A stretch of 61,623 nucleotides of DNA, counting the filler, from Hausera hauseri (taxonomy: Eukaryota): assembly GCA_046269625.1 (NCBI GenBank). It is 12 parts of 12 records of this genome, joined end to end, with 100 filler letters (N's around TTAATTAATTAA, not from the genome) between each part and the next. Parts side by side here need not be neighbours in the genome. Positions count along the whole stretch, not along the records: positions 53,444 to 57,433 come from JBJURY010835415.1; 11 more parts are not named here. One strand, written 5' to 3'. The notes below the pieces were generated by a model. That model was not told where the DNA came from. It was given only the letters and a program-made list of their open reading frames with translations, and made no database searches. Of this stretch, positions 23,561 to 61,623 are shown piece after piece (positions within the stretch are counted from its first letter, which is position 1; each line of letters starts with the position of its first letter). A program made the translations under genes and the position numbers.

Positions 23561-23612
23561 GAGCTTCGTGTTTTCCTTTTACCAGTTCAACATGGGCATT
23601 GACAACTCGTTC

Positions 23613-23900: not shown

Positions 23901-23914
23901 TAGCACAATGACGA

Positions 23915-24505: not shown

Positions 24506-24549
24506 TCCCTCAAAATCTTTTTACTATTTCAAAAATTCCTTCAAAATCT

Positions 24550-24713
24550 AAAACGCGATGGGCTCCAAGTACACCATTCTTACTACATAAAGTAACATTT
24601 ATATCCTTTGGAATGTAAAATGTTAGTAACATTGGTATTGAAATTCCTACATTCACATACATCCCTTTTTTCAATTCAACGGCTGCTCGTCTGACTATTT
24701 TCTCTGTGATCAA
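24550..24713 (-). pseudogene. Succinyl-CoA:3-oxoacid CoA-transferase (SCOT/OXCT) B-domain fragment
   Basis: EKIVRRAAVELKKGMYVNVGISIP...VTLCSKNGVLG matches RAA.E..GMY.NLGIGIP...L.SENG.LG. The catalytic Glu has been lost (SKNG). Confidence 0.8.
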
Positions 24714-25084
24714 TTTATTGAGTTTTCTTTTCTTTTGTTTCTGCCGTTTTCTGAAATATCAAATTGTCAAATTTATGGACCTTCCATTTTTTTATGAGGG
24801 TGGTCATCAACAAGCTCCGATTCTAATAAATACTTTACTTCATTAAAATCTCGTATTGCTTTTGATTTGTAAGACAAAAGGAGTATTTCATCGTTTGAGA
24901 ACCCTTCAACAATTTTGTACGGCATTTTCAATTGTTGGGGTGATTTCGATATTTTATGTTCATCGGGAAAATCTGTTTTCCTCATTGAAAGTCGCAACCA
25001 TGGTTATATCAAAAAATCAAACAAATGATGATGAAAAGCTGCCGATGAAATTATTTGGTTAAGCTCATTTTAAATAAACATTTT

Positions 25085-25780
25085 GCTTACCAAATCATAA
25101 GTCACCGAATTGACTTTATTTCTTATCAGTTTCGTAACATTCATGATGTTATGGCCAATTGGAAAATCCATCTCTGAGAACCTTAGTTGAGTGCCGGTTA
25201 AATCCTCTTTCGTTGGGACGCCCAACTGAGTAAACCAACTTGGTCAAAGATCTATTTCAACATCAGCACGGAATGGAGCCCTTCTCATTACCATTTTGAC
25301 AAAAATACATCCGAGAGACCAAATGTCGACTTCGGAACCGTAATAGCCTGTTTTCAGCAACAACTCCGTTTTATGATAGTTAATTGTGACAACTTCCAGT
25401 AAGAGAGGAATAAATGTAATTGAGACTTTCCTTACGAGCTCAAATTTAGATAATTTTATTTTTCGCGTGTAATGGTGTATTAATATATTATGGGATTTGA
25501 CATCTCTTTGAATAACTCGACGGTGGTGGCAAAATGATACAGCTTGAAGGATTTGAAACATAAAACCCTTATGCAATATATCCGTCATTTCATATAGTTT
25601 AAGAAAAATATCCAGACTCATTTTCATATATTCCAAATTCATATAACGGTTAGAGTAGGTCAGTAGTACTTGATGAAAACTCACAATATTTGGATGTGGA
25701 AAATTTTCAAACAAACTAATTTCCATTAATATCGTAATTTCAGTTAAATTTTCTGGTTTAAATTTTTTAACAGCAGAAAA
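25085..25780 (-). pseudogene. Cyclin-dependent kinase (CDK1/2-like) fragment
   Basis: AVKK, HPNIV, FCHHRRVIQRDVKSHNILI, EVVTINYHKTELLL, VDIWSLGCIF, F.ADVEID and LGVP. HRD, DFG and APE motifs are degenerate. Confidence 0.85.
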
Positions 25781-38049: not shown

Positions 38050-38603
38050 AATCCGTAAAAAAAACAAGTCAGCTTTACTCTCACCTTTTGAAATTCGTTT
38101 GTAGTATGTTGGGTTCCTGAAACCGTGTATAGGAAAATGAAATGAGAAAGGTTAAGTAAAGTTTTTAGCTTCTCAACTATTCAAAGGAGGTTTTTTTATC
38201 GATTACTTAGGTGTTGATATTAGTAAAAGGAGTAGTGTAATTGCACATTATAAAAATGCAAAATTCCAAAAAGAGTTTTTCATCCAAAATAATAAAAATG
38301 GCTACAATTATTTACTCAAGTATTTGAATGACTTAGACCACCCACAACTCATTTTTGAATCTACAGGTATCTATTCAAGAAGTATGGAACGATTTTGTTG
38401 TGTAAATCAAATTAACTATATTCAAATGAATCCGTTAGAAGCCAAATTTAAAACGAGCGCTCTAAGATCATGGAAAACTGATCAGGCAGATGCTCATAAG
38501 CTTGCTTGTTTAGGACCGACGCTCAAACAAACAGGCAGCTTACCTATACATGAGTTAATATTCTTTGAATTAAGAGAACGTGCCCGTTTTCATCTAGAAA
38601 TCG
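38050..38603 (+). mobile_element. Bacterial IS110-family element 5' part (staphylococcal ISSep2-like): non-coding leader plus DEDD RuvC-like domain
   Basis: Shine-Dalgarno AAGGAGG at 38184-38190, then ATC at 38198. Translates IDYLGVDISK...LIFESTGIYS...MNPLEAK...KTDQADAHKLA. Truncated at about 38603. Confidence 0.85.
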
Positions 38604-39536
38604 TTCAGGTCTAAGTACGTGTATGTCGTCACCCCAGATTTTCTTATCAAACATAACCGAATCAAGATTGGGAATTACTTGAGCTCCTCTAGGAATTATG
38701 TATTGTCCTAGAGTCGTCGTTTCTCCACAGACGCGTATCACACTCAGTGGTACAACACTTGTAACACGCTGAAGTTCTTTAATGAAAGCGTTCATGTATG
38801 GTAATTTATTACTGTCTGACATGGTGGGCTGTCTCTCAGTTCCAATTTCCTTCTCGATCTCACGGTAAACTTTCTCCTGAACTTCGGGATAGTGCAGCAA
38901 ATATAGAACACCCCACAGAATTGTATTAGCAGAAGTTTCTACGCCAGCGCCAAACAGGTCATAAATAACTTTCCTCAAATTTGCATCATCCATGGTGGTA
39001 GATTCTCCTGCGTTTTCTTTTTTGTTTTTGTAAAATATGTAGCTAGAAATGAAGTCGTTTAAATTATTTTCATCGATGGTCTCCGGTGTCTTGGCTTGGA
39101 TAAACGGCTCAAGGAATGAATACATTATATACTTTGCTCTGTGCTCCACTCTTTTGGCCTTAAAAATATCCCCGGGAAGTTTAAGCAAGATCGGGAAATA
39201 ATTGGCAAGATTCCGACCATCTGCATCTTCAACATTCATCCGAAGATTTTTTAAAACTTGGACAACATTTTTATCGTCATGCTGAAAAGTATGTCCAATC
39301 ATGATAGAACAGATGACGTTGGTGATGCTTGTCATAATTATGTCATGGATGTCTAAAGGATGCCCTTTGAAATTTGCAATGAGGTCGTTGTTGCTGGCAG
39401 CTAATTCTGAAATCTTCTGAGAAATGGAACTTTTACCCATACCAAGATCTCTTAAAATGGTCAGAGTTACATCCTTTTGTTCTTTCCATAAACCGCCATT
39501 AGAAAACACAATCCCTTTACCTGCTAAGCCAGTTGC
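38583..39536 (-). CDS. Cytochrome P450 (CYP2-clan-like) exon, truncated after PERF (no heme-Cys motif)
   Basis: GIVFSNGGLWKEQ, DLFGAGVETSA, ELQR and LRPERFLDENG. Splice acceptor tttcag just upstream (39542-39537). Confidence 0.88.
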
Positions 39537-40409
39537 CTGAAAGTATAGTTGAAGAAATAGTTTAAAACGTATGAAATAATTACGTATTTAATTAGTCATT
39601 ATTATCATCATGGCATTTGTAGATCGCCTGCTTGCCTGCTACTTTTAAATTAATGTTCAGACTTTCTTTGATGTCTTGTATCCATACAAGTAAAATTTAC
39701 ATATTCACAGCTAAAGAAGTACGAGGGAATATGTACCTAGAGTTGGCATTTTCCTTGACCAACTGATCATAATTGACTTCTGTGCTCAGCATAACGCCAA
39801 GCCAATTTTTCTTACTGAGAGAATTTTCTCTGCACACAGTTTGTGAAGCTGGTATTGAATCCGGAGCCGATTCGTTGGGAAACAATTCAACACCCAACAG
39901 GCTGGAATCAAAACTCACCACAGTTTGTCTCTTACATTTATCAAACTCAGTCATTAACTATAAACAGTTGAAGAAAGTGTTTTTTACTCCACAAACGTAT
40001 GTTTGCATCGCTACACGCCGAATGTTATCTTCTTCTTGTGTGTTTCTTTGATAATTTCGGTTGCATTATCATCTTCCATTAACAAGCCGTTTGTATGCCG
40101 TCCATGTCATTACAGCCCGCTCACAAGAATCTCTGTCTCGTGCTACTTTGTCTGTTGCTTTCAATGTAATGCTCAGATTACCTATAATAAGTTGTGCGAG
40201 GCTTATACGTGAAGCAATAAAGGCTACTTCTTGAACACTTTCACTGCAATCAAATAAAAACAATGCTGAATAAGAAATATAGCTGTCTGGCATCTATGGC
40301 TCCTAGCACCTGAAATCACCTGACATTTTTAACTAGCACTACTGTTGTCTGTCAGCAGAAAATTGATAATTGGCTAAAACCCCAGTACATTCAATTCAGG
40401 TATGAAATG

Positions 40410-40830: not shown

Positions 40831-41565
40831 AGCACTTTATGGATCGATAGTGTTCCGGGTGCACTATCGATCGGCACATGTGCAATATCGATTTATCGAT
40901 CCAACCCTTCCGGGGGGTCTGTGCCCAAATCCCCATTTTCTCCCTACTTCCAGCCATCTCAGGACATGCTTAATTCTTTTAAATCTTCCACAATTGTTGA
41001 CGGCGTGGCTTTAGACACTTCCCAACCAAGTCATTCCGTAATAATTCGCGCGCCACCTTTACAACGGCAAGCGTTTAACAGTGTACATTCGCTACACCAC
41101 CTTGGAGCTAAGGCTACTTTTCGTTTACTCCGCCGACAGGTAATTTGGCCATCAATGCGTTCTTATGTGCAAGCGTGGGTTAAGGAATGTGTGGCTTGCC
41201 AGAAATTTAAAACCATAAAACATTTGAAGCCACCATTATATCATTTCCCTTGCACAACACGTTTCGAGTCCGTTCATGTTGATCTCGTTGGCCCTCTTCC
41301 TCCTGACAACGGTCATCAGTTCACTTTGACCATGATGGATTATTCCGCACGTTGGCCACACGCTGTCCTCCTACGAAGCACTAACACAGACACAATAGCC
41401 GACGTTTTCATACGCGCTTGGATAAGCAGATATAAATCCCCTAGATTAATAGGAGGAAAATTTGCTTTCGGTCCCACCTGGGGGGGCAGGGGTAATCGAT
41501 AAATCGATTTTGCACATGTGCCGATCGATAGTGCACAGTGTGCACTATCGATCCAAAAAGTACCT
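40831..41565. repeat. About 75-bp inverted repeat pair (40831-40912 and 41494-41565), rich in ATCGAT/GTGCAC palindromes; related direct repeats at about 41673-41770 and 42106-42200
   Basis: gcactatcgatcggcacatgtgcaatatcgatttatcgat is the near reverse complement of atcgataaatcgattttgcacatgtgccgatcgatagtgcac. Confidence 0.8.
40921..41432 (+). mobile_element. Ty3/Gypsy integrase fragment (HHCC plus start of core), flanked by inverted repeats
   Basis: HSLHHLGAKAT...WPSMR..V..WVKECVACQ.FK and RFESVHVDLVGPLP...DY..RWP.A...WISRY. Confidence 0.88.
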
Positions 41566-42249
41566 ACAATGGTGCCGCTAGGCGCCGTTGCTAAGGGCAC
41601 TCTCGCGCTTTTCACATATCGATCGCTGAACAGTGCAGTATTGATCGAATCGATAGGGGCAAAGTGCTAATCGATAGAGCACATCGAGGTGCATAGATTG
41701 GTGCACAGTGCAAGTGTGCAGCACATGTGAAAGTGTGCAAAAATCAATAATATTGGATTTTCGACATTTTAAAAATCGATCATGAGCACTCGGAACTGGG
41801 TGCAGTCGGTAGTGTACACGAAGTTTTATGTAAATGTGATGTTAGAATTTAAATCAATTGATTGGCTTTGAATGATTCGCAAGTGGGGCAGAACCGCCAT
41901 AGGCCTTTCAGCTATAAATTTTACATCAATGATATCAAAATGGCACATGTGCAGGCATGTGCAGTACTTGATGTAGTATCTATTAGTGCACAATTCGAGT
42001 GTGCTGTGTTTATTAATCGGTGTGCAGAAGCACTTTTTTACTTTACGCACTTTTGCCATTGTGCTGCGTAGGATTGATGGAATTGATCAAGTTCAAGTGC
42101 AGTTAGATAGAGCACATCGAGATGCACCTTGATGGGTGGTGTGCAGTGCAAAAACATGTGTGCAAGTATGCAAAAATCAATATTATCAAATTTCCGATAT
42201 TTCCAATAAGGATGATTAGCACCCGTGACAGGGCTCAATCGGAAGCAAT

Positions 42250-43176
42250 TTATAATGTAGTATATGAATGTGCAGTTCGAGGTGACAATGGACGTACCTT
42301 TTGACGAATAGGTCTTTGGTGTTGCGTTATGATGTGATGAAAAGTGCTGTTTGTAGGTGTGAATGTTCGGCCCTTCTGGATTAAGCGGGGGCATGAAGTG
42401 TGTATGTATTGCCGTAGACTTTCAGGCAATTGCGAGAGATTGGGTGATCGTGATGGTGTTGAGTCAATATGTGCAGTGACGAATGATGTTTGCGAGTTAT
42501 TGAAACCAAGGGAAATTTGATGTAGGATAGTAGTATTAAAAATAATGTTTGAAGAGGTAATTTTGTCTAGTGAATGTACCGAACCAACGCAATCGTAGTT
42601 GTAAAAACCAAATCTCAACTGAATATCGATATTATCATTAAAAAATTTACAAAATGAAAAATGCTTGTTGAAGAAGTTTGGATTACTTACAGGATTTTTG
42701 AGTATCGTCTTCCGTGGGAAGATTGTTTGCGTCTTAGTGGATATACTATTTATTCGCTCGGTAAGATATCCATTAGTGTTACTTTTCAGACATTGTTGTT
42801 TGCAATCAACAAAAAGATTATAATGGGGTAAGAAATCGGAACCTAGGATTGCTGTGCGGACGTTAGCGACGGTAAACGTCCAACGAATCGTTGAGTGAAA
42901 TTTTGGTAAAGTGAACGACAATTTAGATGTACCTAAAATGTCAAGCGGTTGTCCTGAAGCCGTAAATAACGATTTAGCTTTAAATGGTGAATTTTGTACA
43001 GGGAAAGTGAGTGGTAGCAAAGAAACCCCAGCGCCTGTGTCGATAAGGAAGTCTATGGATTGAGTTGTTGGTGTGGTTATCGAAGCCCTTAGTGTAAAGA
43101 CTGCAAAAGAAGTGTGTCGGCAGGTAGTATTAGAGAAGTTGCCTTTGCCAGACTCTGCCGTGAATACTGGCGGCAA
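42250..43176 (-). mobile_element. Ty3/Gypsy aspartic protease and pre-RT linker
   Basis: FLIDTGAGVSLLP, WTFTVANV..AILGSDFL.HYNL.VD and HHIIT...PI.QK.RPL. Confidence 0.88.
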
Positions 43177-43352
43177 AATTAGTTTTTTTGGATTGATGAG
43201 ATCGGCCGATTATTACTAGGGGAAATAGAACGTCTGTCGGTAGTATGGTTAGCGTTGTTCTTATAGTTGCAGCCTGAAAGGCATTTCTGAGCGTGGAATC
43301 CAAATTTCGTATGGTAGATGCAAACAATCTTGTCTGAATGTAAATTTGGAAT

Positions 43353-44302
43353 CTAATATCTACACCCTAAACAACATTTATTAGCTTTATTATGAAATTT
43401 GCTATGATAATAGCACACAAAGGATCGTGTAGGCGATGGTGACCTGTTTCTGGAAACAGAACGAGTATGATTATGAATAGGAACACTTCGTCGTGGTAAT
43501 GAAAGATCGTTCAACCTATTATTAATGTTATTTATTGTCTGTTGTAGTGCTAAATTTTCAGCGCGTAATTGGCTCAACTGTTGCTCTATTGTTGTATTGA
43601 GTTGATTGTCGCTTGTTGTGACCGCTGCTGATACAAATAATTGGGATTTCAATTGTAGCACTTCATGTGCTTTATCAACCAATTCCGCCAATTTATCCAA
43701 CGCCGTAGATTCCTCGACAACGGTAAGAAGTGCCCTAATTTGTATAGGCAACGCGTTTAAGAAATATCGTCGTAGAAGGTCTGAATTATGCTGCCTAGTT
43801 ACACCTAACGTTTAGAGGTGAGCCAACGACGTACGTGCTGAGGGATCAGTAATGTTGTTAGACTGCAGTCAAAGTTTGTGAAAGCTGAGCCATGTTTTGC
43901 TGGATTTTTCGTGATTTATAAAATATTCCGTGCACTGAGAAGAAGTGTGTTTGGCTGGCGGAATAGAAGATATATAACTGGTGAAAGTAGACGGCGTGGT
44001 TACGGTCGTTGATTTCTGGTGAAAGGCAAAATGTGATGGTTTAGAGGCCGTTTTGTCAGTGGTGTCAATGGTGAGTGAAGTGTCCATTCCACCACGTATG
44101 CGCGAATGTATATGGATAACGAGATATGGGGTCGAAGGAGAGAAAAAATTGCGCATATTGGCATTAACGAGTGGTAGAGTATTATTAGTTAAGTAAAGGT
44201 CTGAAAGAGCCATAAAATGTTGTATATATTTATATAAGTACAGTGAGTCTATATGGTATGTTATATCGTGCGTCAGTATTTATTATTTAATAAAAAATAA
44301 AA
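43353..44302 (-). mobile_element. Ty3/Gypsy gag with N-terminal ubiquitin-like domain (family 2, copy a), decayed
   Basis: FYFLLNN/ILTHDITYHIDSLYLYKYIQHFMALSDLYLT...LVIHIHSRIRGG|MDTS (44302-44088). Gag motifs KTWLSF...ITDP, FLNALPIQIRALL...LDKLAELVDK and the knuckle CYYHSKFHNKANKC. Confidence 0.8.
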
Positions 44303-44899
44303 CGAAAGGGGTGTCACAGGCCCTATTGAGTGGTGTGGCGATGGAAAAACCCGAGGTGTGGGACCAATTGGCATTGGACGCACTGTTAAGTAGTTGGTTA
44401 CGCTGTGATGTACTCGGAACTCAAGAGTATTTTTGCACACATGGCCAAAAATCTGAATCATCGAAGTAAATGGGCTGTAAGAAACAACCGCAACGGAGGG
44501 CGAAGTTTAAAAGGGGTGATGTTGTGTTGACGGCGGACATGTTGAGAACAAAAACATAAGAGAAAAACGGGAAAAGGGGATGGTTAATAAGAAGTAAATT
44601 AAAAAAATGGTTGCCTGACAAATAGAACGCAATGACAAATCTCACTTCGTCGTGCGCTGGTTTCTCCGCGGATGGCAGTATCGTTTTGCACTGTGGGCAC
44701 TGTAGATCGACTTTCTCACGTCGTGTCATCCTACGAGCGATCTTCGTACTCAACCACTCTGAACAAACCCACCGGTTCGTTATATATCGTCTGGTTTTCA
44801 TCGAATCTTGTCTGCTTGGCACCTTTTCACAGACGTCTGTAATCGATCTTTTTATACGCTTCACTCTGCAGTCTAATACTGATAAACTCACTATTTGAC

Positions 44900-45350
44900 A
44901 GCAGTTTTTGTTTATGTTGCAGCAGCTGCATGTACGGCGGAAAAGAAGTTGTACTCGATGTTGGTATATGATTAGCGTTCATTTTCTTAATTTTTTCCGT
45001 CTGGGAATAATCTTCACCAATGTACTTCTTGTCAATAGTGGACCAAAAATTAAAACGACTGCCTTCTTCGACTTGTGACCAATTCAGGCGCAAGACTGAG
45101 ACACTGTGAGACATGTGTTTGCGAAATTCCGTTGCTACAATATGGACGAGTTCATCTTCGGTAATATCTGCAAATCCTTTATTCGAATAGACTTTGTGTG
45201 ATTTAATCAAATCGGTAACCGCTCGAAATTTAAATCTGTGTAACACATTGGTTATATTTGAATGTTTAGTTTTGACAACAAGATCGTTGACAATTTCCAT
45301 CTCAATTTTGTTATCTCTGAGGAACTGTTTAAAGAAATCTTTTTGGTGTA
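44900..45350 (-). pseudogene. PRIM2: DNA primase large subunit fragment
   Basis: F.AV.DLI..HKVY..KGFA.I...ELV.IV..EFR..MS and Y.GEDYS...SFPPYM.LL. The Fe-S Cys of SFPPCM is replaced. Confidence 0.8.
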
Positions 45351-45359
45351 GAAAAGCAA

Positions 45360-47242
45360 TATTTAAACAAATCAACTTTTTGGTTAATAAACCAACAACT
45401 TAATTCGTCAGTACGAGAATGGATAGTAACAAAATAAAATTGTATTAAATGTCATTATGAACATTACTGCTATTGGTGTTCGTTTCATTTGCTCCATAAA
45501 AATATGGTTTAGAAGTGAAATTGATTGAAAGTTTGGTAAAGGCTTCCAAACGAGGAACTCCATCGTTGTACACAGAAATATTCAACGTCAAATCAGTCAA
45601 TTTAATGTTAAAAAACATTTGTATAAGAATGAGATTGCCGCTGAATATTTCCACAGAAAGTATTGATTGAAATTATTGAGTTTAAAATGCAGCTTTGAAT
45701 TAATACCGATATCACAATTCATGGCTGATATTTGAGCTATTCGTAAACCAGTATGGAAGTCCTTATTAATCTCGACTGACAAGGAATCGGGTGATGGAAA
45801 GATAAATTCTGGCACACAATCATTGACGTCTTCAATTATGATCGTCATATGATAGAGTCTAGATAGTTGAGGTTTTCTGTCATCTTTCCCTATGGCACAT
45901 ATTTTGTATTCGTCCTTCAGTTCTCGGTCGAAAGAATTTATTGTCCACAGATGCATGGAATCAAGAGAAAAATACCCATGAGTGTTCAACAAACTGATAT
46001 GCGATTTACTGTCAGTTTCTTCATCGGCATCAACGAACTTAAACTGAAATATGTTATTGCATTTCTTTGTATTTTCCGGAATGGCAATTTTCCCATCAAT
46101 AAGCTTAACTATTTCTGGAGCATTGGCGTTCAAATTTATAACATTTACGGTAAAATATACGAAAGATGATTTTGGAATTAGCGACAAATCAAACACTTGG
46201 ATTTTAAGAAAATACAGTTTGTTTTCTTGGTAATCCAACGGTTTCTTTATGAACAGTTCACCAGATGTGGAAATGAGAAAGGACGTATCACTATGACTAT
46301 TGTTTACTACAGATAATTCCAGCTGATCGTTTTCCTTAATATCTGGATCAATCGCTTGAAAGTAAAACACGGGATCGTGATAAATGGTGTTCTCTTCGAT
46401 AGAAATGGACTAGAAATTCTTCACGTTTACAAATTCCGGAGTGTGATAGTTTTCATCTTGAGCCAATACGAGTATTTTGGCCGTAGCAGAAAGCGAGACC
46501 AGACCGTTATCGTGGCAATGAAGAAAAATACTGTAGAATGTCTTTTTCTCCCGATCTAATGAGAGCAGAGTGGTGATTTTGAACGTGTCGTAGGCATATT
46601 AGCGAAAAAGGAACGATAATTTGAAAGGCGAAATGGTGTCATCGGTGGAAATGTTATAGGATATTACTGAATTTTGGTCTTTATCTTGATCTTCAATGGT
46701 GAACATTGTTAACAGATTATTCAGTGGTCTGTTTTCGGACATGAAATAAACAGAATCGACATTAATATTTGGGACATTATCATTTATATCTAATATATAA
46801 ATATCCATTGTCAGTGTGTTGCTTTTGACTGGGATTCACAGTCTTTAACATTAATTATTAAACAAAAATGATCGATCTTTTCTCGGTCTAATTCCGATTT
46901 TACTTGAATATCTCCAGTTTGATCATCAATCGAAAAGTATTCTGTTTTGTCTTTGGCATTTTCTTGAAGAAAAAATGTCAGTATATTGTTCTTTCCTTTG
47001 TCTAAGTCGAGAGACTGTACTTTGAATATGATTTGGGCGATACTGGTATTTTCGGCTAAATATATATTTTCATATTGAGTGATTGACATTGTAATTGGTT
47101 TCATAATGAACGACAACTTGTCTATAAATCCAATAGTTAACATATTTTTTCGTACGGACTTCTGACACCATTGTTGTTTCCCAGTGAAGGCAGGAATTTT
47201 AAATAATTCCATTACGACAGATAGCAAAATCCAAAAGAGCAT
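45360..47242 (-). pseudogene. Protocadherin/cadherin-repeat membrane protein, decayed and internally deleted
   Basis: Signal peptide at 47242. Cadherin motifs DLDKGKN, LDRE, DINDNVP, AIDPD, PLDY and DVNDCVPEF. Hydrophobic TM-like segment near 45440-45370. Confidence 0.82.
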
Positions 47243-48619
47243 ACAAATTTATATATATTTCTGACTTAAAAATTTTAAATATATAATCTATATACACAAG
47301 TTGATATATATTAATTTAATTGTCACTATGTTTTGTCATAGCAGTTCCATGAATAAAANNNNNNNNNNNNNNNNNNNNNNNNNNNNNNNNNNNNNNNNNN
47401 NNTTAATTAATTAANNNNNNNNNNNNNNNNNNNNNNNNNNNNNNNNNNNNNNNNNNNNAAGAACCGTAATATTAGTACAACATCTGATATAAACTAACAC
47501 TTTCTGATACACGCGTTCTATCATAATTTGAGTCATGATCTCCAATCTGACATCAAAGTTTATGAAGTCAATTCCTCTGTCAACGTAACACTAATAATTA
47601 AGTGTTTTCTGATTGCCTTTTGTCCTTTTTCCTTTTCTTTTTCATTTCCCGGGAATGTCTGAAATTATCTATTAATTGACTGGTTCTCGATAACTCAAGG
47701 AAAGAACATATAAACTTATACCTATTCAATCTTTTCCCATTTCTATTATGCACTTCCATATGTGTGATTTTCTTAAATGAAAAATAACGCAATACTTGCG
47801 AAATGAAATAATGCATTTGGGACGAAATCGTTTCTTGTATTTTCAGAAGCATTTTTCCGGCGAAATTTTTGTCATTTTCCGGAGAGATTTCATACACATA
47901 TCCTTTGGAATTTCTTACATCATTATAAACGATTCCTTATTTGATTTCTTCCATAATAGCGTAAAATCGCCATATTGTCGATTTGGTACAACACAGCATT
48001 TTATGAACAGTACGTTCAAAATTTTAATTTCAATATTCCAATTTTATCAATTCAATTTTAGTGATTAAATTCACTATAGTATCTTTAAATGTGTACTTGA
48101 ATATTTTGTCATTTGTATCGTGTCAGTTAAACTGTTTAAAAGAAGGTTTCGAATTTGTTGATAACTTGAATAAAAGTTTGAATTCTGATGAAGTAATAAG
48201 TAAAATAAGTTCGGATAGACAGCAATCGAAAATGGGCGAAATGTCGTCAACTGATTTTAAACCATCAGCATATGTCTGTAAAAGACTAGGATAATGATGA
48301 GAATTTTCCTTTTTATTATTGATGTAGTATATGTTATAGAATTTGACATATATGAGTCGATATATTTTCTATACATACTCTTTAATTAAAAGAATGCGAC
48401 CACCAAACGAATAGATGAATTAAAACCGATTTAAAATTTTCCAAAGTTCCAAGGCGTTGGCTAAGCTAGACAAGCTAACACACTGTGAAGCTGACGTCAT
48501 GATAATAATAACGCATAAAATACTCTCGTTATTTTTGATTTTGTTGAAAACAGATTTTTTAACGTTCTTTGTGTACAATTGAAACTTGCTGTTTTCAGCA
48601 CATCTTTTTTCGATATTTT

Positions 48620-49066
48620 AATATTCCCGTTATTTTGTACACAATTGCAGTTTGCTGTCTTTATATATCTTTTGCCATCTGATTGAAATTTGAAATGGAA
48701 ACGATATTAATTACTTTCAATGAGTTGTCACATGAGTTGTTCACATTATAACAAGGATCTTTAGTAATCTTGACTTTGGTTGCAAAGACGAACTCTATTG
48801 TTTCCGTTATCTTGAATACAATTGTAGTCTTCTGTTTAACATATTTGCTATTTTGATACCATTTCAATATTTTGCGAGCAATTACGGTTTGTTGTTTGGA
48901 TATTAACATCTGTTATTTATCGTCAACTTTTTCTTGATTTTAAATGCGGTATCTAATATTCATTTATCAGATTTGGATTTAACAAATTTGTAATGCTCCT
49001 TTCATATCGCCTGGTCACCGTCATAATTCCCCCGTCCCCGCAAATGCCGCCAGGAGTTGTTTGCAT
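48620..49066 (-). repeat. Deleted/rearranged duplicate of the LRR-gene segment at 52170-53333
   Basis: Shared blocks: 48622-48658 with 52172-52207, 48906-48982 with 52215-52293, and 48982-49066 with 53250-53333. Confidence 0.75.
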
Positions 49067-49258
49067 TCACAATTATTTTAGCACATTTCATTTTTATATC
49101 ATACATTCAACAAATCCAACCTTCAACAACCCGATTTTTGATGCAAACAGCACAACCAAACATGCACACGTATTTACACTCATACATACACACACCTATA
49201 TATTTATATATTATATACACTATATACATTTTTTATATCCACCTATACATCTCCCGTT
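49066..49258 (-). mobile_element. Possible polypurine tract and 3' LTR start
   Basis: The minus strand reads aacgggaga|TGT at 49249, just after an RHAGRRVLEPDRL pol-tail-like peptide. No matching second LTR was found. Confidence 0.3.
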
Positions 49259-49377
49259 GAAGTTCGACCGGATTCCCCAACTAAACGGTCGGGTTCCAAC
49301 ACCCTTCTTCCTGCATGTCGAAATTTTCTGTCAACCTTTTCTTCTGACCATATAGGCACCTTTCTAACTGTAGTTGT

Positions 49378-50247
49378 TTACATATGGTAGACATTAACGT
49401 TTTGTCCACACGTGTCGAATGTTCTTCTCCATCGATCATATTCAGAGATCGCTCCACCAAATTTTGGCGACTCCAGTCTTTGCAGCTTCGGCAAAATTAC
49501 TTTTTCTTTCATTTCGTCATTCGCGGTCTTTTTTGTTACGTTGACCACAGTTTTATTCTCTCTGAGACTCCGTTCATAAATAATCCTGTTAATCTTCTCA
49601 TTTTGTTCGTCTAATTTCTCCATCTCGTTCTCCAGTAATGTTACGCTCTTTTTCTTTTTCAGCTTTCTAGCTGCGGTGGTCAATAAGCACGATTCTTCCC
49701 GAACATTTGAGAAGATCTTTTCATAACTTTGATAAAATACACCATAGTCGTACTCACTCAAATTCACGTCCATCAGTCTCCTTCTAATTAATGCTAACTC
49801 GTTTATGGGTCCCCGACGTTCGGCGATACGTTCTTCAAGTTCGTCTACGGTTAGTTCACTTCCTTCTTTTAGTCGGAATATTACGTGTATTGCTGATCCA
49901 TGCTTTAGATTCCTCACCTCATCGTCTGTGCGCAATGGTTTTCCGACATATAGTATTCTGAATTCCCAGTTGATCCTTAGGTTCTCCTTTACGTGGTCGA
50001 TTAGAGCGCAGTAAGATTGTAATTTAATTAATCCTGTCACGTAGTGGCGTTCGCTACAATATATAATTATTTGTTTTCCCTTTTGTTCCACTGTAAAGAC
50101 CGAACTTTCCACCATAATACTATCGTCTGATTTTCTTATATTATTTTGCTCCATCGTGACACCCTTCCTAGGATTTCTCAACTTGTCTTTCCTTCTATTC
50201 TCCTCGGTTGACCGTTCCTCAATACCGTTTAGATTTTTAAGATTCAT
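49378..50247 (-). mobile_element. Ubiquitin-like domain plus Gag-like protein (family 1, copy b)
   Basis: KQIIIY...LIDHVKENLRI..EFRILYVGKPLRTDDEVRNLKHGSAIHVIFRLKEG (50076-49861). Then a helical region (ARKLKKK, QNE.I) and LPKLQRLESPKFGGAISEYDRWRRTFD, a Gag P.F.G....W motif as in BEL/Pao DUF1759-type Gag. Confidence 0.78.
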
Positions 50248-52149
50248 TCATTTTTGCACTTTACTCCTTGTTCCCCCAAACAAGTTTCTTATAAACATTT
50301 CATTATTCTTCACATTTGGTTTATTACGTCTTTTGGTCCTTTTGACGCAACCAGATGTATGATCTTCTTCCGTATTACTAATAGATAAGGCTTTTAATTT
50401 TCCCAAGGGCGTCACCATTGCCTCGCCTTCAAAGTTGCACGATTTCCATCCACCGACTTTTGTGGCAACTTTTACGGGCTTGGCACGGATTCTCGCTCCA
50501 TACATACCATAACGGAAGAAAAGTAGGCCAACATCGAGGAGAAAGACATACAGACCTCGAAAGACGATTGCTTCACGTGGTTTGTGTCTGCGGATCACGG
50601 TACAGAGCACAAACCACGCTCTGCTACCATATGGAAATTTTATACGAAATTGACACAGTAAATTCGTCATGTAGTTATATGCATCTCCTTTGAAGTGAAA
50701 GTCCAATTTATTTCCGACATAAACCCCCGGTACAACCTTCACCATTCCTTTCCTGGGCCCATATAATTTTTCTCTTGGAGTGTATACTTCCTCATCTCCA
50801 CTCAAAGGCTCTTGAATCATAGACTTCACCGATTTTGTAACTAACTTATATTGAATTTCCACCACCATCACTAAACCGACCCAATCATTATTAATTTCAT
50901 TACCATAAACATTCGCACACTTTACACATAAGAAATATATAATAGTACTATTGTGGTATATTCGAGAATTATTATTACACAATCGCATATTATTTATGCA
51001 CAATATGTTTATTATGATCTTTCTTTCGTCACTAGGTTCTTTATTCCTCATTTTGTTATTGACTCCAGATCCCATAATATCCGATTCATGAACTTTCCTC
51101 AACCTCCAAATTCCTTTAATCAATATATAGCCATATAAAAAACATTTATGTTAATGTAACAGACAAACCCAGCCATTGTTCTCGCGGTGCCGCTCCGCGG
51201 GGGAATATCTCCACCGTTAAGTATAAGTACTAATGCGAACACTCTGATTTTAACATTCATTCTAATGCTACAATTCCCGGCGACAATCATGGAGACGAAA
51301 AAACAATAACAATTAACAACTGTAATATTGACACAACACTTGACTACCTTAACAATCAGCATTCCCTGTTCCACATATTTCGTTGGACCTTTCATTATAA
51401 CATCAATTTCTTCATTAAGTAATTTCAATGATATATACTCATCTGTTAACGTATTTACAACGACTAAGCATCTCCTAATTGTCTTTCGATCGCTCTCCTT
51501 TATACCTGTATTCTTCAGGAGATATCTAAAGACATTTATCATTGTATTAAACTCCAACGTTTTAACGACATAACGAATAAAATGATACCGACACGATTTT
51601 TCTATGATTTCATCATCTACATCCATACATATAATTTCTTTGACTTGAAAATAATTCAGCATTTGCGATTTGAAATAAAGCGATTGGGACAATTTTATCT
51701 GACATTTCTTTTGAGCCTTTTTCCCGTTGCTTTTTTCCAATTCCTTTAAAGAGATTTTATGAGCGTGATCCTTGAATTCTATCCTATGAATAGACCAATA
51801 ATTTTCATGAATCCGTCTCCTGTACGGTATATAATTTGACTTCATTTAAATGTGCTGGTTTAGAATTTTCTGATCAGCAACGTTTAAAATTAAATTAAAT
51901 TCATTCATCAATTATAGTGATTCAATATCACTATGTATATTATCATTATATAATTATATTGAATATATATACCAATATCTTTTATATATATCTCACGTTG
52001 ATTAAATAAACTTTATTTTACTTGCTAAATTTAATTTTGAAATGAAAGTATCCATGAATGTTGAACTACTTTCAACAATTTTTATAATAGCAAAGGGGTT
52101 TTACGATTTGGCCTTATTCCTATGAAATTTGATAAGCTGAATTTGGTTT

Positions 52150-53197
52150 ATAAAGACAGACTTCTGAATATTCTTTCGTTATTTTGTATACAATTGTGGT
52201 TTGCTGTTTTACTGACATCTGTTATTGATCGTCAACTTTTCTTTCTTGATTTTGGATGGAGCCTCTAATATTCCTTTATCGGATTCGAGTTTAATTTCAA
52301 GAAGTAGTTTATTTGCCTGTTCTTGGCGTTTAACCATTTGCATATCACGGGCATCATCTCGCCATTCTGATACAGTATTTATCTTTAATGCTTTGTAATT
52401 TGATTTCTCTCTTCTTTCACTTTTTTAATTTTAGCTAATCACATTTGCTCATTTATTTTCTGTTCGATGGTTTCCAACGAAATTGGTTCTCGATAAAGGG
52501 TGACAAATTCGCTATGTTTATCCGACTGTGTCATGATTGGTCTTTTATGACAAAGACTTGACGAACGAGACTTATGGAGATACGAATTGTGAATGTCATG
52601 GTAAATCTTTGGTTTGTGAACCTTTTCGGACTGCTTTCGTTGTAAAACAGTATTATTTTCATTCAAATAAAAATCTTCTTGCGGTGTATCACCTGAAAAC
52701 AACCGATCCCTATCAGCAATAAATTACCACAACTAACCCATCGGCTTATCTACTCTATTTAATTCTTTTAAAATTGCTCGATAGCCTTGAGCAAGAACGT
52801 CGGGAGCAGGAGTAACAATTGGATTTGACCCCACATTTAGTCCTTACAGACTTTTAAGTAAGCTCAATTCGAATGGTAATTCCGATGTTATTTCCATCAA
52901 TAAGTAACACTTCCAAATTGACTAAATTCCGAATGTCTCGTGGAATAAACTGAGTCTCATTAAATCATATATCCAAAAATTGTAATTTTGGAAAGGCAAC
53001 GAAAATTTCATTTGGAATTACCTCAAATAATTATTATTAAGATAGCAATATTCAGTAAATGTTGCTTCGTAAATTTCTATGGCTAATTCTTTTAAGCCCA
53101 AATCACTAAAATTAAATGATTTGTCTTTCGAATATAACATATTCAATATCCTCTCTTCAGCTCGTATACTTACATTATTTTCTATATCGTTCGCCAT
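52150..53197 (-). pseudogene. Leucine-rich-repeat protein, decayed
   Basis: FNFSDLGLKEL, YLNNNYL, FPKLQFLDI*FN and IP.DI.NLVNLEVLLIDGNNI, with stops and frameshifts. Confidence 0.7.
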
Positions 53198-53443
53198 AAT
53201 AAACAGTTTTGTTACTCTATATAATTCTTCTACATTGTGATTTGTTTTAACAAATTTCTAATGCTCCTTTCATATCTCCTGGTAATCGTCATCGCTCCCC
53301 CGTCCCCGTGAACGCCGCCAGGAGTTGTTTGCAATCATATTTANNNNNNNNNNNNNNNNNNNNNNNNNNNNNNNNNNNNNNNNNNNNTTAATTAATTAAN
53401 NNNNNNNNNNNNNNNNNNNNNNNNNNNNNNNNNNNNNNNNNNN

Positions 53444-53565
53444 TATTTTATTTATTATAATGATTTTATGTAAGTAATCAATTGTTGGTTAGAAATATAT
53501 ACTTAGTTAGCGTTTATTTCCGCTTATTATGGAATTATTGTACAAACAACATTGGTGTCAGAAGT
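53444..53565 (+). promoter_or_regulatory. LTR 3' end (…CAACA, 53551) followed by a Ty3/Gypsy-type primer-binding site TGGTGTCAGAAGT (53553-53565)
   Basis: Canonical CA-n-TGG junction. TGGTGTCAGAAGT is complementary to a tRNA 3' end (Leu-type) and is a common Gypsy PBS. Confidence 0.65.
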
Positions 53566-53634
53566 CTAAAGATATTTTGCAATTTTCTAAAAGTTCCGAA
53601 ACCATTAATGAATCCAGTGTCATGTATATGCATT

Positions 53635-54480
53635 TAAATCAGGAATTAGAATGATATTATAATGGAAATTTTGCTGTTTTACATCGTTTTTCGTCTCAGG
53701 ATAAAAATTTAATTTTTAGTTGTTCTACTGGTTCTGACATTAAATGTGTGGCATTTACTTCCATGTCAAACAAACTCTGTTCAAATGCTTCTTTGGACAT
53801 TATATTTGATAATGAAGCATCGAATTTGTCTACGGGAATTGTTTTATTTACAGATAATATTGCGAAATATTATGGATTTAACGGTGAAACTCATGGTTGT
53901 AAACTTCCTTGTCGAGTAAGTAACGCTTGGAAAATGATGAATTGCTTGTTAATCGAACGAGAGGAATATCAGTTATTTACGGATATGTCGCCACATTCGT
54001 TGTTTTTAATGACCCACATAATGTCAGAATTTACATCTGTCGTTTTCCGCGATGAAAATGGTTACAGAGGATTTGTAAATAATACTCGTTTTCGAATAAT
54101 GCCTGTTTGTAAAAAACAGCAGTTGATAATCGGCTATAATAAATCGGACAACTCGTTTTCTTTGTGGCGCTTGAGAGATACAGTGAAAGAAGACTATTCG
54201 AATCATTATAATCAACATTGGGATGGGTCTATTACTACTAAAGCAGCGAAATTACAATTACGTTCTGTCAATATGGATTCAATGTCTCAGATTGACCGGC
54301 AATCTGGTGATTAGTTTACGAATATGACTTTGCTAGCTAATGTTAGCAAAACAAACCGTTCGATTGATGATTTAGATATGCGAAGTCCTCTTGTTCGATC
54401 ATTAAGGTCCACTTTGGGTGTTAACGATTCGGGAACGATGACTCATCGGCAATCGTTAGACATAGCGGCATCGAAACAGA
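53635..54480 (+). pseudogene. ANAPC1: Anaphase-promoting complex subunit 1 N-terminal fragment
   Basis: LPCRVSNAW....LLIER, LF.M.H...EFT.V and IIGYN......SLWRLR resemble the APC1 WD40 region (LPF.V..VW...GLL.ER; H.L.E..P; SVW.LR). Confidence 0.6.
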
Positions 54481-54529
54481 AATTCCATATTTATTAATTT
54501 AAAATTCTAAAATCTCTCGCTTTACATAT

Positions 54530-55130
54530 CCATGGGGCTGACGTAGCTAAAATTCAACTTTATAATACTTCGGTACCGTGTCATGGATATAAAATCGAGC
54601 TTATTCCCGGTGATCCCGTTAGAAAAGCCTTTGAAGGAACGTTAGGTGATGTAGTAAATTCTCAATTTCAACAGCAAATTAATGCCACTCTTCAACACGG
54701 AAAACCATATCAAAATGTGCCGTTAATTAACACAAATAATCATCCTTTATCTTGTCCCAATGGAAATTTTCATTCTGCAAACTGTTATAGACGTCTCTAC
54801 TTTCAATTATTAAAAATTCCAATTCATGAAGTCGAAGATAAGCAACAGTTTTGCTGCGCTTTTGTTGACATTCATGTTCAAGAACAAATGGAAATTATAG
54901 TAACTTTGCATAAAACTGGAAGTGCATCAGATTTATTAGCAGAGGCTAAACGTCAAGCAAGATTAACAAATATAAATTCTTATTTCTATCGACTCTTCGA
55001 GGTTGTTAATCACAGAATCATCAGTCTTATTCCACTGAAACGGAAAATATAAGAGTTGGAACCGAATGCCAATCGAATTCTGCAAATTGAAGCAATTCTC
55101 CCTGGCGAAGAAAAAATAAATCCCAAACAA
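54530..55130 (+). pseudogene. USP7: USP7 C-terminal UBL-region fragment (non-catalytic)
   Basis: PGDPVRKAFEGTLGD, RRLYFQLLKIPI.E.E.K..F.C, K.G...DLL.EAK, RLFEVVNHRII and RIL.IE.I. Confidence 0.75.
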
Positions 55131-56361
55131 ATTGTCTTACTGTCTGTAGACTCATCACTTAAAAGTACTATAAATGTTACACGTACCCAACGGACCAACA
55201 ACATCAATATTACCAGTAATTTACCCCCTCTTTCACAATCATCAATTCTACAGTCTGAATCAACAATAAAGCTTATATCTCCTGTATATACTTCTAATAC
55301 TCAGATCAATATTAACAAACTTCCACTCTTGCATCTCGATAATACTATTCATATCGAATCTATACGGAAGAATAAACCCTCTAAATTTCTTAATTTAAAA
55401 GATTCCATCAGTCAGATAGGTTCATCAGCAACCTTTGTGGAGAAACACGACGGGGTAAGACCGGTAGTATTGTATTATTCTCTCGTGAAATATTTTTTTA
55501 ATATATATTTCATTAACAATACCCTCCATCTATTTCCCTCATTTATTATCGTTCATGTCATTGCTGGCACAGCATTGTCTCCTGAAACTTATGCTCACCA
55601 TTATAGGGTTACTCCCTTCAAATATGATTTTATCTATGATTGCCGATTTACTTTCACGTTTGAGCATTCATTCCTATGGGGAATTGAGATTCACGTTTCA
55701 TCAGGCTCTGATAAGTATTTTAGTAATTTCGAAAGATAATTTAACGATAATCGGCTCATCGCAAACCTATTTTAATCAATATTCTGGAGGTTTGCCCACG
55801 ATAGGTTGTACGATTCATTTGGAATTTGTAAACGGCGTATTTAGTTTAAAAAGGCTACATAAATTACTATTGCCGGCAATCATGTCGGCTTTGTTATTTA
55901 CATACGAGACTTCATATGGGACCACCTACATTGTTATACCAATGTTCTTTATAACGTTGAATGGCAAGGTTATTAATTTCGGCCGCTACTACTATATTTA
56001 TATGGCGATGTTGATCATTCCCCACACGAATACCATCATTTATTACGCCAGAATAGAAGGAGTTATTGTTGACAAAATTTTATTTATTGCATTTACTGTT
56101 AGCTACTTCAATTTTATTGAGTTTGTCAACAAACCGTTTTGGCAGTATCACATTTTCTCTTTGTTTTTCATAATCCAGTTCGATTGCTGCAACCTGGAAA
56201 TTTTGAAATACATTTGGTACCTAGCGCAAGCGTTTGTCGGCGATACACGTTAACTACTATTTCGACATGACTCCTGACGCCCCGGGAATTCTAATACATT
56301 TCAACAAAACATTTCTTTTTTTCTTGCTCAGATCATAATTTCTGTTTATTTAATTCAACCG

Positions 56362-57433
56362 TTGTTTTACTTTATTATTTGCCCACATCATCGTTTTTCG
56401 AGACACATTGCACTCGAAAGAATACAGGAACTTGATGACGGTCCAATAGAAATTAATGAAGTGGTTCAGTCATTTCACACTCTTGAGTTACAAACAAACT
56501 ATAGCATGATCAGCCACTCAACTTTCTATTTTGAGTCAACAAATCCATGGTGTGTTCTATCACCACTCCAACCACTTGAGTTTGCACCAACTATTTATTT
56601 TTATTTCTTTTTAAATAATCAACATGTACTAACACATGGAATGACAAATTCGATAGATGCATCCTACCTACATAACTACACGCTACACGCAGTAAATATC
56701 TTTGATTTTTATCTAACGTACAAGAATACGGCAATAACTAACGCCAACTTTCACAGTCTTTTTGTGCATTCAAACCATTGTATTGTCATTCACATACATA
56801 TTCGCATGCGTGGGGCGATGGATTCTTCTTCCACCGTCGATACTAGTAATAAAAATACTCAAAAAATACCACATTTTCCTTTTCATCAAAAACCATTGAC
56901 CATAAACATACCATCTTCTTTTAGTAGTTATGCTCCTACAATCTCGCCAGTCAAAAACACTTCTCAGTGTACCGAGTACTTTATTGACCACGAACAGTCT
57001 AACAAAACGTGGCTTAGCTTCCACAAACTGGTTGCAATCTAACAATATCACTGATCCGTAACCAAGGCCCATAATCTGCTTTGCCTTTTACCAACAACTG
57101 TAAAATCGGCCATTTACGATTTGCTCGATATCTTCCAGAAACCTGATCCATACACGCATCTTTACAACGCTGTTTTGAAACTTACGGAACCATCTATGGA
57201 CTCAATAATTCACCATTTCTTCAACGACAATGCCATGAGGGAGCAGAAACCATCTGATTTTCTCAGAACGTCACTCGTGCAACTTCAAACACTTGGCGTG
57301 ACGAAACAACATAACGCCGATCTTTTGCGACATTACTTCCTGAATGCATTGCCCACACAAATTAGGGCCTTACTTACTGTCGTTGAAGAATCGACAACAT
57401 TAGATAAATTAGCCGAACTGGCGGACAAAACAT
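56362..57433 (+). mobile_element. Ty3/Gypsy gag with N-terminal ubiquitin-like domain (family 2, copy b), truncated at the contig end
   Basis: IYFYFFLNNQHVLTHGMTNSIDASYLHNYTLHAVNIFDFYLTYKN...IVIHIHIRMRGA|MDSS (56593-56817). Gag motifs KTWLSF/ITDP, PDPY..L..A, KPSDFLR and FLNALP.QIRALL..LDKLAELADK. Confidence 0.82.
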
Positions 57434-59469: not shown

Positions 59470-61623
59470 ACCATTTTTATGTCAGCATCTTTTCATGTTG
59501 GCAACTTTTCATGTTGGTAGTTTTTTTAATGTCAGTAATTTTCATGTCAGTAATTTTTCATATAGGCAATTTTTCATGTTGACAACTTTTCATGTCAGCA
59601 ATTTTTCATTTCGACAACTTTTCATATCAGTAAATTTTCATGTTGGCAACATTTCTTGTTGACAACTTTCATGTTTGTTACTTTTCATGTTGACATTTTT
59701 TTCATCCATGACAACGTTTCATGTTGGCAGTTTTTTCATATCAACAACGTTTCGTGTTGAAATTTTTCATGACTTCAACTTTTCATATTGACAGTTTTTC
59801 ATGTCGGCAATTTTTCATGACAGCAATTTTTCATGCCAGAAATTGTTAATGTCCATCATTTTTTCATATTGGCAACTTTTTACGTTGTCTGGATTTCATG
59901 TCAGTTTTCTTGTCGACAAATTTTCATGTTGACAACATTTCATACTACCAACTTTTCAGGTTGGTCATTTTTTTCTTGTCGACAACTTTTTATGTTGGCC
60001 ACTTTTCATTTTGGCAATTTTTGATGTTGGCTATTTTTCATGTTGGCAGTTTTTCAGTTCGAGAACTTCTCATGTTTTCAATTTTTTATGACATCAACTT
60101 TTTCAACTTATTATATCGGCATTTTTTTTCCATGTCAGCAACTTTTCATGGTGAAAACGTTTCATCTTGGCAGCTTTTCATATCGGCAAATTGTCATGTA
60201 GTCAACTTTTGATTCAGAAATAATTATCAGCAACTTTTTTCTTGTCACAAGTTAGGGACAACATTTGTGGTAAAAGGTTCGAACATTTTCCATTCTTCTG
60301 GGTTTTGCAATCATTAGCTTTGACAGGTGGGTGAAGTTGGATCTTTTGCAGACTTTAGTTGTTTTTTTATCCATTCCAATTGTTTAAATTTTTTCTTTCT
60401 TGAGAGTGGTTTTCTGTATTCACATTTTCTGAACTTTTTTCCAATTTGTTTTGGTTCTATTACTCTTTTCACCTACTGACCAATACCCCTCAAAAATTGC
60501 CCACAGTGCATCCTGGAAACAGAAGAAATTCTGGTCAACTTTGGGAGAATCGAACATTGCATCAGGCAATAAAACCAAAACTTATCTAGCCTTGAAAATG
60601 TGTAAAACAAGCATCCGTCTGTTGGACTCATGCACCATGTTGGAAAATCTGTTTACTCGACTCTTGAGGAACTCTGAAACAAGTCTGTCGGACATGTTAA
60701 CACAGTAGTGAAGTAAGAAGCATACTCAATTGATGAAAACATAAACTTCCAGAATCTTGACAAAATCCCAAACTCAAGCTTATGAATAATATCAAGAGAC
60801 CTAAAATGGATTACAAAAGTCTGCAAGAATGCAGAAAACCATTTTCATGAAAGAAAAAATTAAACAATTGGAATGGATCAGAAAACAACTACAGTCTTAA
60901 AAAGACTAAACTTCACCCACCTATCAAAGCAAATAATGGTAAAACCCAGAAGAATGGAAAATGTTCGAACCCTTTACCACAAATATTGTCCCTAAGTTGT
61001 GACTAGAAAAAACAATGCTGACATTTATTTCTGAATACACAAGTTGCCTACATGAAAATTTTCATATATGAAAAGTTGCCAACATCCAAAGTTTTTGACA
61101 TGAAAAGTTGCCGAAATGAAAAAAATTGCCGACATGAAAAGTTGATGTCATGAAAAATTGCAAACGTGAAAATTGCCAACATAAGAAGTAGCCAACATAA
61201 AAAAAATTTCCAACATGAAAAGCAGACAACATGAAAAGTTGATGTCATCAAAAACTGACTGACATGAAAAGTTACCAATATGAAATGTCAACATGAAAAG
61301 TTGTCGATATGAAAAAAATGACCGACATGAAAAGTAGCTGAGATGAATAGTTGCTAACATAAAAAGGTTACCAATATGAAATGTTGACATGAAAAGTTGT
61401 CAACATAAAGTAACAGTGGCATAGTGGTTAATGTGCTTGTGCTCCTAAATGCATGATTGTGGGTCAATCCCAGCTGTGAGCATTGCATTCTTTTGACTAA
61501 TTATGTGCCGGTGTCAAGGAAGAATGTAGACACTAACTCCACATTTCCCTATGCACCTGTATTGGAGGGGGAAATGAAATGACTTGATGAAAAATTGTCA
61601 ATATGATAAGTTGTTGACACGAA
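59470..61623. mobile_element. Foldback-type element: long inverted arms built of about 19-20 bp tandem units plus a ~190-bp inner inverted repeat around a ~450-bp non-coding core
   Basis: Left arm of ttttcatgttggcaac repeats (59470-60210), right arm of gttgccaacatgaaaa repeats (61043-61623). 60211-60399 is the near reverse complement of 60849-61038. Confidence 0.85.
61410..61583 (+). mobile_element. tRNA-derived SINE inserted in the foldback right arm
   Basis: A box TGGCATAGTGG (61417-61427) and B-box-like GGGTCAATCCC (61461-61471). It interrupts the tandem repeat. Confidence 0.55.

Follow-up and report, generated by a model that had tools for sequence, protein, structure and literature searches.

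Partial copies of host genes are known from retrotransposons with long terminal repeats (LTRs). In animals, LTR-mediated retroposition places partial host coding sequence inside an LTR element, with no poly(A) tail or target-site duplication (TSD) of its own, and the sections of the report by Tan et al. (2016, PMC5131818) that deal with it describe co-capture of two genes, a sense bias, frequent use of the parental frame and, in one family (BLASTOPIA), a recurrent switch site. Here we describe a related arrangement in DNA of Hausera hauseri (assembly GCA_046269625.1). The window, i.e. the whole stretch of 61,623 nt that was analysed, consists of 12 contigs of 4-7 kb and of mixed composition, joined by N-spacers, and the locus in question occupies one whole contig (53444-57433, GC 35%; JBJURY010835415.1). 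This contig represents the 5' half of a CsRn1-related Ty3/Gypsy element in a decayed state, in which fragments of the host genes APC1, USP7 and DPAGT1 lie between its primer-binding site (PBS) and a gag gene whose product begins with a ubiquitin-like (Ubl) domain. We consider it probable (about 0.78) that this cargo was captured serially from mRNAs by template switching, in front of a gag that was retained.

The process is known; what appears to be new is the way the parts are arranged, with a site of recurrent insertion after the PBS, more than one host gene in each copy, a frame that is kept, and Ubl-fused Gag in two families. The following comparisons draw on those sections of the cited papers that concern the respective elements. 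In the retrocopies of Tan et al. (PMC5131818), part of an element open reading frame (ORF) is replaced, whereas here the host sequence is an addition in the 5' leader, with leader and gag kept, there are three to five genes per copy, the frame extends across junctions and a Ubl precedes Gag. The maize element Bs1 (PMC5131818, PMC7264820) resembles our locus in having three unlinked host gene fragments in one LTR element, partly in frame, but it is a single plant element with fixed cargo, while here copies differ in the cargo that they bear at a single site upstream of gag. The CsRn1 clade (PwRn1, AgCR; PMC2582038) has the same DUF7041-type gag with a CX2HX9CX3C knuckle; the present element differs in its two knuckles, its N-terminal Ubl and its tRNA-Leu PBS, the paper giving tRNA-Trp. 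Burro, a group of giant planarian Gypsy elements (PMC6431247), is an animal example of a Gypsy polyprotein that includes host-like domains, among them a Ubi2/SUMO-like one, yet in this 25-kb element the domains are fixed and lie downstream of a CCHC Gag, in contrast to the variable fragments upstream of Gag described here. Finally, cytopathic pestiviruses (PMC8310069, PMC13517609) carry host RNA pieces that end in ubiquitin, are fused before a viral protein and are cut by the host, with mosaic inserts at few hotspots; they are, however, RNA viruses without reverse transcription and carry fresh host ubiquitin, whereas the Ubl of our element is an old, diverged family trait. A literature search, at the level of listings and abstracts for most matches and with Repbase and subscription journals outside its scope, found no description of a Ubl-Gag fusion, nor of cargo upstream of gag in invertebrates or flatworms. 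Known LTR capture mostly consists of single events that replace element genes, while here several fragments recur at one site before a retained gag, in sense orientation and mostly in frame; this points to a slot that could be used repeatedly to acquire host messenger RNAs and to shuffle them.

The contig starts with the presumed 3' tail of the 5' LTR (53444-53551, plus strand), which is cut by the contig start and ends in AAACAACA. The LTR label is presumptive because there is no second LTR, and it is based on the position of this tail before the PBS. The PBS itself (53553-53565, plus strand) is 13 nt long and complements the 3' end of tRNA-Leu(CAA), and the LTR end plus PBS that had been recognized from the sequence alone (hereafter the original prediction) is indeed present as CAACA-T-TGGTGTCAGAAGT at 53547-53565. 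The 13-mer is identical to the first 13 nt of a probe, given in a section of PMC7997516, that is complementary to the tRNA-Leu(CAA) 3' end. It occurs exactly at two sites of the window (53553 on the plus strand and 47170 on the minus strand) against 0.0015 expected, and it lies, as in Ty3/Gypsy LTR retrotransposons, within 1-3 nt of an LTR ending in CA. Judging from its PBS and gag, the element is an LTR retrotransposon. The last 8 nt of the LTR tail are identical in the second copy found in the window (the sister copy, described below). An ATG at 53529 in the tail is in frame with the PBS and with the first cargo block, and the sister copy has an ATG at the same motif and in the same frame in its own LTR tail.

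Behind the PBS follows the first cargo block (block A). It opens with an internal fragment of APC1 (ANAPC1; 53566-54494, plus strand), the aligned part of which, 53823-54410, corresponds to human residues 153-349. APC1 was the best match in two libraries (Pfam ANAPC1, E 0.0011; human APC1 153-349, E 0.0023), and a query running only from the PBS to 54050 did not find it. This fragment had been expected within ~70 bp of the PBS; a single frame does run on from the PBS, but supported homology begins only at about 53823, some 260 nt on. The USP7 piece predicted to come next does so: it is an internal fragment from the C-terminal Ubl-domain region (54498-55151, plus strand; human about 845-992), matched by Pfam USP7_C2 (E 1e-12) and by human USP7 873-992 (E 2e-8), with a 45-codon in-frame, stop-free insertion relative to the human protein. 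The two fragments share one frame, interrupted by stops at 53652 and 54312 within the APC1 piece, at 54495 at the junction and at 55050 within the USP7 piece. The block closes with a stretch of 95 codons rich in S, T and N (55152-55438, plus strand), which continues the open cargo frame, has no counterpart in the sister copy and matched nothing in Pfam or PDB. Over the whole length from the PBS to 55438, this frame contains 4 stops in 628 codons, compared with 40-60 in each of the other five.

From 55439 the element's own leader resumes. Leader part 1 (55439-55668, plus strand) is common with the sister copy (44667-44450, minus strand), with a local alignment score of 61.5 compared with a mean of 25 and a maximum of 46 in 200 shuffles. 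It contains at 55455 a GTRAGA site resembling a splice donor, which, here as in the sister, coincides with a codon boundary in the frame upstream of it; going by this motif, splicing might start there. The leader is then interrupted by an 810-nt insert (block B; 55669-56478, plus strand), which is absent from the sister copy, and continues as leader part 2 (56479-56589, plus strand), again common with the sister copy (from 44428, minus strand). Block B contains a DPAGT1/ALG7 fragment (55780-56403), which a PDB sequence search aligned with human residues 99-307 (E 2e-27); the intervening ORFs had been noted as unassigned, and while they do exist, this fragment accounts for the main one. The region 55489-56250 had no Pfam match, though DPAGT1 was later named there by the PDB search, and an atlas search of it gave no usable match (best 0.77). 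Since Pfam missed both this fragment and an LRRC47 fragment mentioned below, the scan of antisense frames and the lack of recognized cargo in eight relatives (both below) are shallow tests. The DPAGT1 fragment lies in the frame of Ubl-gag except for a short stretch near 56250-56310, which is shifted to another frame; its two apparent stops sit within that stretch and are not point mutations, and a sequencing error is possible there. The piece has also lost normally invariant residues. Apart from this stretch, the APC1, USP7 and DPAGT1 alignments contain neither an intron-sized gap nor a frame change, and it is in this sense that the pieces can be called intronless.

The Ubl domain forms the N-terminus of Gag (56590-56817, plus strand). 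The fusion to Gag had been predicted, with a start at 56362; the fusion is there, but it starts near 56590. With a profile built from 28 relatives, the top ranks went to the four ORFs of the window that encode Ubl-gag (E 2e-4 for the ORF of the present contig). The AlphaFold model of the domain (predicted local distance difference test score 69.6) matches beta-grasp folds such as SUMO, PB1 and Ubl; the best structural match was SUMO1, with a middling Z of 7.6 (root-mean-square deviation 2.8, 75 aligned), and nearly all 50 rows were beta-grasp proteins. This predicted beta-grasp fold directly precedes Gag. The domain ends in GA in the present copy and in GG in the sister copy and the aligned relatives; both terminal glycines are invariant in all 18 relatives of an alignment made ahead of motif filtering, while the rest of the domain drifts. 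The CsRn1-related (DUF7041-type) gag that follows (56818-57433, plus strand) is broken near 57030-57055, and the contig ends before the zinc knuckles. The break in gag and the stops in the cargo agree with the decayed state originally ascribed to the element. Capsid/nucleocapsid features of gag are present, the knuckles being seen in the sister copy and in relatives, and 17 of the 30 Gag relatives scanned match DUF7041. The CHCC knuckle (CX2HX9CX3C) that marks CsRn1 is found, twice in the sister copy, but the PBS matches tRNA-Leu(CAA); because CsRn1 has tRNA-Trp at this place, we call the element CsRn1-related and not a member. A scan of a genome collection with the gag alignment yielded 60 pattern matches and one weak locus (26% identity, E 1e-4, in a bacterial metagenome-assembled genome), which was not used.

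The sister copy (43218-47358, minus strand, in contig 40831-47358) consists of an LTR tail, the same PBS (47170-47158), cadherin and primase-large-subunit fragments (47157-44668), the leader and Ubl-gag. Its gag, 70-72% identical in DNA to that of the present contig, has two CHCC knuckles and is followed by a protease-like ORF with a DTG motif (read by eye), for which Pfam gave no match. Searches with 44424-44978 yielded no assignment. On the far side of the protease-like ORF the sister breaks off; 40831-42250 contains short repeats and an oppositely oriented integrase, and no reverse transcriptase was found. Alignment of the two copies showed common element DNA at 55439-55668 and from 56479 on. 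Between the PBS and 55439 they are unrelated, their cargo blocks not aligning clearly above shuffles; therefore, the two copies are opened at one and the same point after the PBS. The present copy additionally bears its second insert of 810 nt in the leader, unlike the sister. Without cargo, the element's own DNA from PBS to Ubl amounts to ~340-360 nt. The same PBS thus heads two copies with the same Ubl-gag, and a peptide encoded by it precedes Ubl-gag in database relatives as well (see below). Because sister and relatives pair this PBS with Ubl-gag, an origin of the PBS from an unrelated element, named beforehand as something to be checked, is ruled out.

The search with Ubl-gag gave 182 relatives, of which 150 were listed, and 152 proteins were stored; the counts that follow are among the matches listed. 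The Ubl-gag pattern fits 31 of the 152 stored proteins, 26 of them with two CHCC knuckles, and these relatives form one clade with the gag of the present contig (support 0.988; 52 sequences, 202 columns) when set against 20 other DUF7041-type sequences. The peptide encoded by the PBS, in any of three frames, was found in 10 of the 24 relatives with at least 30 residues before the Ubl, compared with a shuffle mean of 0.11 and a maximum of 3 in 5000; it was found in none of the gag parts and in 1 of 121 other matches. In eight of these ten proteins the Ubl starts 61-164 residues after the peptide, in agreement with a leader of 340-360 nt. The remaining two have a host fragment between PBS and Ubl, namely P0002 with a CNOT1 fragment (Pfam E 1.9e-18), which groups with the present gag at 0.985, and P0053 with an LRRC47 fragment (E 3e-19). 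The leader showed no similarity to P0002 in the single frame tried. The Ubl-gag relatives P0010, P0027, P0031, P0036, P0057 and P0117 also begin with long N-terminal regions, in some of which there are host domains (histone H2A, 5'-nucleotidase, SCC3 HEAT); the host domain of P0010 is probably a neighbouring gene, because it lies before the PBS peptide. In P0151, an unrelated protein is fused to a gag of this family. Contigs such as the one described here could yield false fusion genes in annotations, and P0002 and P0053 may be examples.

The position of APC1, USP7 and DPAGT1, flanked by element parts, bears out the claim that host cargo lies between PBS and gag. An LTR-mediated retrocopy is recognized by a piece of host coding sequence that has parts of a single LTR element on either side; because leader and gag start are kept around both inserts and no element ORF is replaced, we regard the locus as a variant of such retrocopies. 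All 10 identified fragments of the three Ubl-gag contigs are in sense orientation to gag (3 in the present contig, on the plus strand as first noted, 2 in the sister and 5 in contig 21167-26383). The host pieces are internal, they include no A-runs of 7 or more, and the only repeats at their termini are 4-5 nt long, i.e. of chance length, so that neither a poly(A) tail nor a TSD was found around them. About 2.1 kb of host coding sequence is present here without introns, compared with three introns in 1.0 kb of a helicase gene in the window. We infer that the element would pick up internal pieces of host mRNAs such as those of APC1, USP7 and DPAGT1 in its particles during reverse transcription, by template switching on co-packaged mRNAs that was repeated serially; capture of this kind has been described for animal LTR elements (PMC5131818) and for maize Bs1. 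The pieces would be added between PBS and gag, leaving gag in place, and the stretch just behind the PBS would serve as the recurrent cargo site.

Several points weigh against serial capture from mRNA. The contig is cut inside the first LTR and inside gag and shows no second LTR, TSD or pol, there is no read support, and the similarity between the LTR tails of the two copies (35.5) was not above shuffles (maximum 46). The Pfam ANAPC1 score is under the curated cut-off and support for APC1 is weak. No parent gene with which to compare exon junctions and microhomology was found; a parent search with the USP7 piece gave 1536 candidates, none at E 0.001, and one with the sister's primase piece gave 103, none at E 1e-5. 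The helicase used as intron control may come from another organism, the compositions in the window being mixed. None of nine antisense frames matched Pfam, a shallow test given that Pfam missed DPAGT1. P0002 and P0053 are predicted proteins, seen without DNA context, and may be mis-spliced neighbours; host domains precede the PBS peptide in P0002 and P0010, hence such models can join neighbouring genes.

The short contigs of mixed origin, one of which joins an IS110 transposase to a cytochrome P450, would fit an assembly or library chimera, in which a retrotransposon contig was artificially joined with transcripts of the host or with amplified fragments, and so would the inverted integrase at the end of the sister contig and the join of an unrelated protein to this gag in P0151. 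We nevertheless give a chimera little credence, as the element is interrupted at an identical position in the two copies, by different cargo in each, all fragments are sense and mostly in frame, and two database relatives have the same order of parts; moreover, the fragments contain all three stop types and have lost invariant residues, unlike mRNAs of essential genes. A chimeric join between 53565 and 56362, which had been named as a condition that would overturn the original prediction, is made unlikely by the element DNA shared with the sister, which resumes at 55439 and is itself interrupted by DPAGT1. Equally improbable in our view is a nested insertion, whereby another vehicle (a Helitron, a Pack-type DNA element or a LINE (long interspersed nuclear element) retrocopy) built the mosaic and landed in the LTR leader. 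Helitrons do capture several gene fragments, according to a passage in PMC6431247, and there are two separate inserts in the present copy, but terminal inverted repeats, A-tails and target duplications beyond 4-5 nt are absent, and capture at the DNA level should retain introns and occur in either orientation, against 10 of 10 sense fragments. The least credible reading takes the pieces for normal adjacent genes in a compact genome poor in introns, with what remains of two unrelated LTR insertions on either side: every piece lacks both ends, three unrelated genes occupy 2.9 kb without intergenic space, a single frame is common to two of the pieces, and the PBS, the leader and gag belong to the same family. 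Some animal parasites have compact genomes, which is the point in its favour. An altered genetic code was also considered for the interrupted frames and rejected, because stops of all three types are present and other genes of the window read normally.

The open cargo frame raises the further, tentative possibility that translation of the cargo extends Gag at its N-terminus, in which case host deubiquitinases might cut the Ubl after its di-glycine and captures that keep the frame would be tolerated, with their amino acids free to drift. The low number of stops in block A points in this direction, as does the number of adjacent junctions that keep frame (7 of 8, P 0.003 at one in three; one of the eight, from the end of cadherin to primase, is based on motifs read by eye). 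If the three pairs with long spacers are added, none of which is in frame, the figure falls to 7 of 11 (P 0.04), and the junction pairs were partly noticed through shared ORFs. At 0.15-0.2 neutral substitutions per site, 12-15 stops would be expected in block A (P 0.006-0.0006), but a divergence below 0.1 per site would need no selection for 4 stops. Both copies have the ATG of the LTR tail in the cargo frame and the donor-like site in phase, and DPAGT1 is in the Ubl-gag frame; on the other hand, block A and Ubl-gag are in different frames, so that translation through both needs an unproven intron, for which there are several candidate acceptors. The DPAGT1 piece and a CDK piece of another contig have lost invariant residues while their frames are still open. 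The invariance of both Ubl glycines among the 18 relatives also favours translation, but the Ubl of the present copy ends in GA, and each of the three PBS frames is used among the ten PBS-bearing relatives (by 3, 2 and 5 of the 10). Ubiquitin insertions of pestiviruses are cut by host hydrolases, as a section of PMC8310069 describes, which releases NS3, and an N-terminal Ubl is likewise present in a further gag family of the window, unrelated to the first.

On this evidence the Ubl could, speculatively, be a cleavable linker that frees Gag from upstream translation; its cleavage would explain why kilobases of foreign coding sequence are tolerated 5' of gag. One might go as far as to suggest, with the same reserve, that in a Gypsy lineage and independently in a BEL/Pao-like family a host-cleavable Ubl before Gag makes the 5' leader an exchangeable, frame-selected cargo bay for host cell-cycle and housekeeping mRNAs, whose fragments would be taken up one after another, joined in frame and moved along with the element, so that exon shuffling would be part of its design. 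If true, the locus would offer a natural, countable system for multi-gene exon shuffling by reverse transcription.

The second Ubl-gag family, presumably BEL/Pao-like from a motif we recognize, is represented by contig 21167-26383 (minus strand), where five host fragments (CDK1/2-like, CoA transferase, DEAD-box helicase C-terminus, kinesin motor and dynein heavy chain N1) lie upstream of the different Ubl-gag. The last four are in one frame, and it is the CDK piece of this contig that has lost normally invariant residues. We take the helicase and kinesin pieces to be vasa and KIF15; the libraries named them only as Helicase_C and Kinesin. A PBS was not found in this contig among the 28 motifs tried, and contig 1-4974 has no element part; the claim that the mosaics of the window are LTR cargo is thus shown for the two PBS-bearing contigs. 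Another copy of the second family (49381-50247) lies in 47459-53343 (minus strand), after two unassigned ORFs and a leucine-rich-repeat piece, and a 103-nt repeat occurs near 49000 and 53300.

The remaining contigs contain a variety of features. The helicase gene used above as intron control is a DHX37-like 3' end (31729-32902, plus strand) with three introns of 43-56 nt per 1.0 kb of coding sequence; it is followed by a decayed kinesin piece (33391-34100, plus strand), 45% identical to the kinesin cargo of contig 21167-26383. A stop-free ORF of 1615 codons at 128-4972 (minus strand) fuses a HEAT-repeat piece in frame to a titin-like Ig/Fn3 array; the former is presumably SF3B1-like, the library match giving HEAT only. 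A fragmented viral fusion glycoprotein at 5075-9115 (plus strand; Pfam Monjiviricetes_fusion, E 1e-8) is probably an endogenous viral element. The GC-richer contig 9216-16277, which encodes a cysteine-rich protein of repetitive sequence (by eye SRCR-like) and differs from the rest in its codon usage, is probably from another organism. Decayed ORFs at 26484-31361 (plus strand), without Pfam match, look by eye like integrase and capsid genes of what we take to be a Polinton/adintovirus. At 38156-39587 a bacterial IS110 transposase piece adjoins the eukaryotic cytochrome P450 on the opposite strand, a join that likely reflects contamination or misassembly. An Rfam scan of contig 53444-57433 gave nothing significant (1 match, E 0.63). 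Finally, 59474-61623 contains 16-nt tandem repeats in opposite orientations, which flank a 159-nt inverted repeat.

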